Shown piece after piece: positions 40,713-41,793 of a stretch of 64,000 bases of DNA. Each line of letters opens with the position of its first letter. Within the stretch, counting starts at the first letter, position 1. The stretch is from the NCBI RefSeq assembly GCF_057098645.1, contig NZ_CM169472.1, one strand, 5' to 3'. The translations under genes were made by a program, and so were the position numbers. The notes under the pieces were generated by a model. The model had not been told where the DNA came from. It did no database searches and saw only the letters and a list, made by a program, of their open reading frames with translations.

Positions 40713-40761
40713 TTTACCTCTACCGGATAGTCACACTGATGAGTCTGATCCGGGAGGGATT

Positions 40762-41793
40762 TTAATCAGTGAGTTTGGTTATCATCACCCGCGTTACGCC
40801 ATCTGTTTCAGCCAGAGTAAACCGCACCTGCAAGAAACGCTCCACCACGGCGATATTGGTCAGCAGATGGCATGAGGGATGGGCGACCGTAAATTGTCCC
40901 GCGCCCGCCAGCGCCATTGGCAACACTAGCTGGTCAGCAAGATATTCCCCCACTGCCGCCGGGCTTGCCAGGTAGCGTTTCACCTCTTTCACCAACTGTG
41001 CCGCAACCACCTCGGCACTGACGCGCTTTTCACCGACGACAAAAAAGCGTTCGGTGATATTTTCACTTTCGACTTCAAGCGAGACGGTATTACCCGGCCC
41101 CTGGTCGCGCGGCAGGTTATGAATATACTGCTCATGCAGGGGAAAACTCCCCGCCAGCGTAGCGATTTCACGCTCAGCAACATGGCGCGGCACACCAGCC
41201 AGTAGCACCTCTCCACGCATCTGCACAATGTTCCCGCGCTCGCCAACTTGCAAGGTTTTAAACGATGCCACTGGCGAGACTTCTGTTGCCACCACGCCGC
41301 CTCCGGCAGGGTAAAAACCGTGACGTAACAGCGTGGTTTGCTGATGAATTCCTATTTTCGCCAGCAGCGGCTCCAACACCCGGCGGATAAAATCCGCAGG
41401 CGGGGCCGACGGGTTATCGGTACCGCCGCTCACTTCAACACGCGATGGCCCGTCGGCAAACCACAGCGCGGGCAGCACCGTTTGCAGCACCAGCGTACAG
41501 CTTCCGGCGCTACCGATAGCAAAGCGGTAATCGCCGCCGCGCACGGTGCCCGGCCGGAAGAGCAGACGCTGCGACCCCAGCTCCGCGCCTTCCACCGTTG
41601 CCCTACAAATTTCCGCAGCTGCTTTTACCGCGGTCAGATGCTGGCGCAACAGTCCCGGTTTTGCCCGCCCGGCACGAATGCCGGTGATGGTAAATGGCTG
41701 GCCGGTTATCATCGACAGACTCAGCGCCGAGCGCAGGATCTGCCCGCCACCTTCGCCCTGTGCGCCATCCAGCGCAATCATCCTTTTCATCAT
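40762..41793 (-). CDS. rtcA: RNA 3'-terminal phosphate cyclase
   Basis: 343 aa [37 protein letters not shown]...; annotated start may be the second Met; start abuts the rtcB stop. Confidence 0.93.

Follow-up and report, generated by a model that had tools for sequence, protein, structure and literature searches.

The altered 3' end of rtcA

In the DNA analyzed here, a GNAT toxin gene ends almost directly against the convergent 3' end of rtcA, which raises the question of whether the insertion that brought the toxin also rewrote the C terminus of RtcA and, if so, how this came about and whether the enzyme would tolerate it. The window is a stretch of 64,000 nucleotides from contig NZ_CM169472.1 (NCBI RefSeq assembly GCF_057098645.1), and a genome search found its positions 39700 to 41100 to be identical to Escherichia coli O145 strain RM9872. 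The gene order is malT (plus strand), ataR2, ataT2 and rtcA (minus strand), followed by rtcB and rtcR. According to the open reading frame list and the RefSeq annotation of the identical RM9872 locus, the malT coding sequence occupies 37186 to 39891 on the plus strand and ends in a TGA stop codon at 39889 to 39891.

A preliminary description of this DNA had placed the toxin stop at 40712, about 50 bp from the rtcA stop, and had remarked that rtcA appeared to be a few codons longer than its K-12 counterpart. Both observations were borne out. The open reading frames leave a 49-bp spacer (40713 to 40761) between the convergent stop codons, and RtcA is 342 residues long, versus 338 in K-12, when both are counted from the common MKRM start (RefSeq start, 41790); an upstream ATG at 41793 would give 343 residues. 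A BLASTP comparison of the window RtcA with K-12 RtcA gave 324 identities over 337 positions, and the two proteins part company at the very end, K-12 RtcA finishing in ...TRVSIE and the window protein in ...RVMITKLTD. Thus, the alignment of rtcA with the K-12 3' end that had been proposed as a check shows C termini that differ, K-12 having the tail VSIE.

The further suggestion that the insertion had replaced the last rtcA codons also held when we aligned the DNA with five insertion-free strains, in which the gene ends S-I-E-stop rather than M-I-T-K-L-T-D-stop. The ancestral part of rtcA, codons 1 to 335 (40786 to 41790, minus strand; 96% identical to K-12 RtcA and PDB 1QMH), is followed by seven new codons (40765 to 40785, minus strand; identified by BLASTP and DNA alignment) and by a new stop codon, TAA in the window, at 40762 to 40764 on the same strand. 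The replacement cost rtcA its stop codon and its last 8 coding bases, or 2⅔ codons. The former Ser codon, AGC or AGT, became the ATG Met codon, and homology to the empty sites resumes at its first base, 40785, the sole ancestral rtcA base within the M-I-T-K-L-T-D codons. The reading frame now continues through 21 nt of inserted DNA to the TAA, for a net change of three codons lost and seven gained (+4 residues). The preliminary description was therefore right that the junction abuts the rtcA 3' end, but the interval it gave stopped at 40780 and the break in homology lies about 5 bp farther on, at 40784/40785.

The inserted genes are ataRT2

The first gene of the inserted pair (39958 to 40236, plus strand; RefSeq WP_000801912.1) encodes a 92-residue DUF1778/TacA-type antitoxin and the second (40227 to 40712, plus strand) a 161-residue GNAT toxin, the two reading frames overlapping by 10 nt (40227 to 40236). 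Chains B and C of PDB 7F37 match the window toxin and antitoxin with E values of 9e-106 and 2e-55, respectively, and the toxin is 99% identical to that of 7F37, differing at 2 residues; the TacT, AtaT and KacT structures were matched as well. In strain Sakai, the order is malT (ECs_4260), ECs_4261, ECs_4262 and rtcA (ECs_4263). Because the window cassette genes correspond to ECs_4261 (antitoxin) and ECs_4262 (toxin), the inserted pair is AtaRT2 of O157:H7. ECs4261-ECs4262 has been named ataRT2, and its toxin acetylates Gly-tRNAGly (PMC7470980); this aminoacyl-tRNA acetylation was shown experimentally for the O157 protein, which is 2 residues removed from the window toxin (PMC7470980, PMC9177977). 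The searchable AtaT2 papers (PMC7470980, PMC9177977) make no mention of the malT/rtcA context or of an effect on RtcA.

Upstream of ataR2, an imperfect 27-nt inverted repeat (78% complementary; 39889 to 39952, plus strand) encloses a promoter-like site, TGTACA-16-TAAAAT (39910 to 39937). This region is conserved in the related modules of Pectobacterium, Raoultella and Citrobacter and, judging from its sequence, is probably the ataRT2 promoter/operator, with the repeat serving as the AtaR2 operator.

The closest chromosomal relative of the module, at 78% amino acid identity, lies upstream of a ugpB-like gene in Pectobacterium peruviense (L006, 1600 to 4483). It adjoins a 304-codon open reading frame that looks reverse transcriptase-like by eye and several small open reading frames, surroundings that may constitute a defense or mobile islet. 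The closest plasmid relatives, each about 0.95 kb, come from Citrobacter farmeri and Enterobacter roggenkampii (L018, 570 to 1518; L019, 593 to 1521). Within E. coli, the annotation marks ataT2 as a pseudogene, interrupted by an internal stop, in CUWW06 (L011, 773 to 1258) and GDSC2227PM (L028, 1 to 150); the CUWW06 ataR2 gene is annotated as intact, and rtcA of GDSC2227PM is also annotated as frameshifted.

Structure of the two junctions

The insertion-free strains used to define the empty site were K-12, EC2641, K_EC180, SCU-176 and ST131. All five align to the window through 39895 and again from 40785; between these points they have 49 bp, versus an 889-bp block in the window (39896 to 40784, plus strand), as delimited by the alignment and by genome searches. 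Each of the five empty sites reads malT TGA or TAA, GTTT, the 49 bp and then TCACCCGCG / TCACCCGCGTTACGCC; in EC2641, the 49 bp are AGCCGGATAATGCATTGGATCCGGCTTACATCTTTACATCATTCAATAC. Within these 49 bp are a hairpin and the end of rtcA, namely its stop codon, the codons for Glu and Ile and two of the three bases for Ser.

At the left junction, the sequence AGTTT (39891 to 39895) is found both in the empty site, as TGAGTTT followed by AGCC, and at the left end of related plasmid cassettes, as TTAGTTT followed by GTGTAGCG; the left end of the Citrobacter IncF plasmid cassette reads TTAGTTTGTGTAGCG. The presence of AGTTT in both the target and the Citrobacter cassette therefore defines a 5-nt microhomology, recovered by alignment with the empty sites and the related cassettes. 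It is at these same positions, the left end of the block, that homology to the Pectobacterium and Citrobacter modules begins, as does homology to the Raoultella cassette.

The right end is of a different kind. Homology to the Pectobacterium, Raoultella and plasmid modules stops near the toxin stop, with none in the 49-bp spacer, and the last 72 bp of the block (40713 to 40784) have no relative outside the 394 carrier genomes described below, either in a blastn search (word size 11) of E. coli genomes or in the searches of plasmids and metagenomes. The right-end sequences that could be used to recognize a donor are window 40713 to 40784 and TTTTAATCAGTGAGTTTGGTTATCA.

A repeat search also revealed that the block is bracketed by a perfect 9-bp direct repeat, GTGAGTTTG (family D13). 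Copy 1 (39888 to 39896, plus strand) extends across the malT stop and the left junction, and copy 2 (40769 to 40777, plus strand) lies within the new rtcA tail. In a post hoc comparison of the left junction zone with random 61-nt stretches of the window, the empirical P value for a shared run of 9 nt or longer, such as the one that links the two zones, was ~6e-4. On the minus strand, copy 2 runs from the third base of the first Thr codon through the Lys and Leu codons to the second base of the second Thr codon. It thus encodes most of T-K-L-T, and part of the RtcA tail is therefore antisense to a copy of the sequence around the malT stop. The stretch GTGAGTTTGGTTATCA, downstream of ataT2, bears on the origin of copy 2. 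The occurrence of GTGAGTTTG at both ends of the block suggests that the target either was duplicated during the event or served as its template.

The block encodes no transposase or recombinase, its only open reading frames being ataR2 and ataT2, and the repeat search found no terminal inverted repeats joining its two ends. Moreover, copy 2 is separated from the resumed rtcA sequence by 8 bp, GGTTATCA, and the original spacer sequence is not there. Because copy 2 is followed by GGTTATCA and rtcA rather than by the original spacer, simple cut-and-paste insertion with duplication is not the whole story.

Distribution of the block and of the new tail

Searches of 5,426 complete E. coli genomes with the 1.4-kb region, the 889-bp block, the 106-bp tail junction and the 72-bp right end each returned 394 genomes; these were four separate searches, and the counts were compared as totals. 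The block is always single-copy and chromosomal in its 394 carriers, and the 46 matches on plasmid records in the 1.4-kb search included none to the block itself. All other genomes matching the junction probe do so only from probe position 31 to 34 onward, equivalent to window 40785 to 40788. We also looked for strains in which the same rtcA 3' end occurs without the insertion and found none, the tail junction being confined to the 394 genomes. The lineages named for the block together with the tail are O157:H7, O55:H7 and O145:H28. A further 81 contigs encoding the identical O157 AtaT2 all show the arrangement malT-ataR2-ataT2-rtcA-rtcB with an rtcA of 342 codons. On these sequence comparisons, the new RtcA tail is a product of the insertion of the AtaRT2 block.

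RtcA ends in VSIE in the outgroup E. albertii and in every E. coli RtcA that lacks the new tail. The outgroup therefore identifies the new tail as the derived state. Both junctions are identical in all of the carriers examined, and the block itself differs among them by 0.3 to 1.7%.

Origin of the insertion

We consider it highly probable that the locus arose by a one-event replacement by an AtaRT2 cassette, which left a near-neutral scar at the tail of an RtcA that is still a working cyclase. A single ancestral illegitimate recombination would have set a minimal AtaRT2 cassette, made up of the promoter/operator, ataR2, ataT2 and ~70 bp of trailing DNA, directly after the malT stop codon. The same event, or one closely linked to it, would have removed 49 bp of the malT-rtcA spacer, comprising the hairpin as well as the stop codon and final 8 coding bases of rtcA, leaving the rtcA frame to run on into the right end of the block and so to change from ...RVSIE to ...RVMITKLTD. 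A plain target-site duplication fails to explain the 8 bp GGTTATCA and the loss of 49 bp, and more than one step may have been involved.

That last point is taken further by a reading in two steps, which we regard as possible but decidedly the less probable course: the cassette would first have inserted after malT with an 8- to 9-bp target duplication (GTGAGTTT), leaving rtcA intact, and a later deletion or substitution would have taken the hairpin and the rtcA end, with GGTTATCA as filler. The direct repeat brackets 39896 to 40768 exactly as a target duplication would, and the sequence past copy 2 differs from what follows the counterpart of copy 1 in the empty sites, both as such a history predicts. 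The intermediate that it calls for, however, with the block, an intact hairpin and a VSIE tail, is absent from the 5,426 genomes and the 81 further contigs, and a block that has neither a transposase or recombinase nor terminal inverted repeats is not what an insertion with target duplication leads one to expect.

The replaced hairpin offers a different way of reading the right end. The right-end hairpin of the block (CCGGATA...GATCCGG) could be a diverged form of the resident hairpin (GCCGGATAA...GGATCCGGC), in which case the insertion would be shorter than 889 bp and the tail would have arisen by local divergence or small indels. The 7-mers CCGGATA and GATCCGG are indeed common to both hairpins in the same order, and a global alignment also pairs AT-TTTA-ATCA downstream, but the local alignment score is no better than that of shuffled sequences (P = 0.23), no intermediate forms were found, and a sensitive blastn search with the 72 bp came back empty in the 5,032 non-carriers. 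We therefore regard common descent of the two hairpins as improbable and retain replacement by the cassette as the preferred account.

No donor of the block closer than 78% amino acid identity, and no source for its last 72 bp, was found across E. coli genomes, PLSDB plasmids, phages, GTDB representatives and JGI metagenomes. A megablast search of the block against the PLSDB plasmids gave no match, the best tblastn matches were at 74% in plasmids and 45% in phages, and two pattern scans of JGI metagenomes gave no match. A scan of the GTDB species representatives returned only Pectobacterium, Raoultella and a Yersinia fragment, none of them adjoining rtcA.

Transcriptional surroundings

With the insertion, the resident hairpin that lay beyond the 3' ends of both malT and rtcA was lost. 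In its place, rtcA is now followed by the hairpin at ~40717 to 40757 within the 49-bp spacer, which folds on the rtcA-sense strand with -17.2 kcal/mol (z = -2.06). On the other side, the inverted repeat with the ataRT2 promoter-like site now extends over the malT stop codon, and because the resident hairpin is gone, malT transcription may read directly into the putative AtaR2 operator. We considered whether the resident hairpin is a REP element and rejected the idea: it has a REP-like look, but NC_000913.3 annotates no repeat there. No Rfam families were found in 39700 to 41000.

Predicted effect of the new tail on RtcA

Does the altered C terminus matter to the enzyme? The window RtcA scores 767.6 bits against the NF003247 equivalog model (cutoff, 333), with residues 1 to 337 aligned, and 397.5 bits against TIGR03399 (cutoff, 250). 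The RtcA motif AHPSCH is kept, and its histidine column (H308 in the 342-residue numbering) is invariant in an alignment of 54 sequences. His309 (339-residue numbering) is the adenylylated nucleophile that forms the enzyme-AMP intermediate (PMC3854526). All of the carriers for which a full-length sequence was examined have an intact rtcA.

The part of the protein that changed appears to be one in which the family is permissive. In about 100 RtcA homologues, the sequence past the last β-strand ranges from 0 to ~15 residues and is not conserved, and the 1QMH construct itself ends VSIE-GSHHHHHH, carrying eight extra C-terminal residues. An AlphaFold model built with 54 homologues (mean pLDDT, 94.1; pTM, 0.91) has VTRVMITK (residues 332 to 339) as the final strand, paired with residues 322 to 329 in the C-terminal β-hairpin, and LTD (residues 340 to 342) as a coil of lower confidence. 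The tail change predicted by the model thus amounts to the substitutions S336M and E338T, a final strand that is one residue longer and a loose end of three residues. The pN/pS ratio of rtcA is 0.08 to 0.18 among carriers, versus 0.09 to 0.13 among non-carriers.

The tail itself does not vary: its seven codons (21 bases) are invariant in 18 of 18 carrier sequences examined, while the nearby 49-bp spacer and the stop codon vary. As their stop codon, O145 and several other carriers have TAA, O157:H7 has TGA and strain JX21CE8 has TAG. From the variable ends of the homologues, the tag on 1QMH, the modeled strand extension, the equivalent pN/pS values and the invariant tail, we infer that the new tail is a near-neutral junction scar and that RtcA is still an RNA 3'-phosphate cyclase.

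The same invariance could be taken to mean that the tail is functionally selected and alters the stability, partner binding or regulation of RtcA in O157 and O145, perhaps in connection with the tRNA-acetylating toxin, and it could be added that both stop codon changes preserved a stop. There are too few polymorphic sites for the argument to carry, however, only about 6 in 72 bp, and a transition in TAA yields another stop in two of three cases. The C terminus is, in addition, naturally variable in the family, the model shows a mere extension of a strand, and no paper in the searchable literature links the RtcA and AtaRT2 systems. For these reasons selection on the tail seems to us quite unlikely. 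Its fullest form, in which the tail is kept by selection in O157:H7, O55:H7 and O145:H28 by altering RtcA stability, localization or partner binding and ties the RNA repair operon to the toxin, seems more unlikely still; if selection were true, the locus would offer a small example, open to dating, of a mobile cassette giving rise to coding sequence de novo.

Variation in rtcA around the junction

Across the window and the sequences compared with it (L001, L002, L004 and L010 to L017), rtcA (40786 to 41790) is unusually diverse and mosaic in E. coli, carriers and non-carriers alike, with a synonymous divergence of 0.07 to 0.18. Blocks of rtcA with 6 to 13 differences per 100 bp adjoin identical blocks, while rtcB and most of malT are ~1% different. 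K_EC180, which has no cassette, has the same flanking rtcA allele (FTLAETDG) as the carriers up to the junction, yet has the VSIE tail. Conversely, the new tail is joined to the other common allele, F-G/S-LIETDG, in the carriers GF4-3, A25 and Combat11I9. Since both flanking alleles are seen with the new tail, recombination has shuffled rtcA beside a constant junction. Import of a whole rtcA allele together with the cassette, suggested by the 5 to 9% divergence of rtcA from K-12, was rejected, since the gene is equally divergent and mosaic in carriers and non-carriers and both flanking allele types occur with and without the new tail.

Two further differences between strains were observed. At rtcA codon 321 (40826 to 40828; 342-residue numbering), the O145 allele has Gln (FLQVRF), while all other carriers examined have Pro, the residue that is at least 90% conserved at this position among 54 RtcA homologues; the change may be a lineage-specific substitution of functional relevance. 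In ST131 genomes (L003, 1735 to 2521), a deletion fuses an rtcA 3' fragment to an rtcR fragment, and these genomes lack rtcB along with most of the Rtc system.

Discussion

The change at the end of rtcA is correct and cleanly resolved, and it is an ordinary junction effect: both gene products were already known and annotated, and inserted cassettes are well known to remodel gene ends. Its direct importance is small. What it documents is the exact placement of the characterized AtaRT2 module in the O157/O145 chromosome, and the junction, the same in 394 genomes, offers a clean single-event marker of these lineages. It also provides an example of a cassette insertion that adds a few new codons to a conserved enzyme that is predicted to be still functional. 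In practice, the C terminus of RtcA in these pathogens is not that of K-12, which is relevant to the cloning, tagging or modeling of RtcA or AtaRT2 from enterohemorrhagic E. coli.

Three known systems invite comparison. The first is AtaRT2 of Sakai, which shares both the locus and the genes: its antitoxin has the identical accession, its toxin departs from that of the window at 2 of 161 residues, and the two systems show no material difference. The second is K-12 RtcA (PDB 1QMH, 3KGD and 3TUT), to which the window protein is 96% identical over residues 1 to 337, with the same RTC and RTC_insert domains, the same rtcBA operon beside rtcR and the adenylylated histidine kept; the difference is that K-12 RtcA has S-I-E where the window protein has M-I-T-K-L-T-D. 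The third is the set of GNAT/DUF1778 cassettes on Citrobacter and Enterobacter IncF plasmids, which are likewise compact two-gene units of ~0.9 kb with a homologous operator region. Like AtaRT2, they lie between two unrelated genes (traD and traT) and converge on the downstream one (traT), but their toxins are 70 to 74% identical at the protein level, and their trailing sequence is a GC-rich terminator hairpin.
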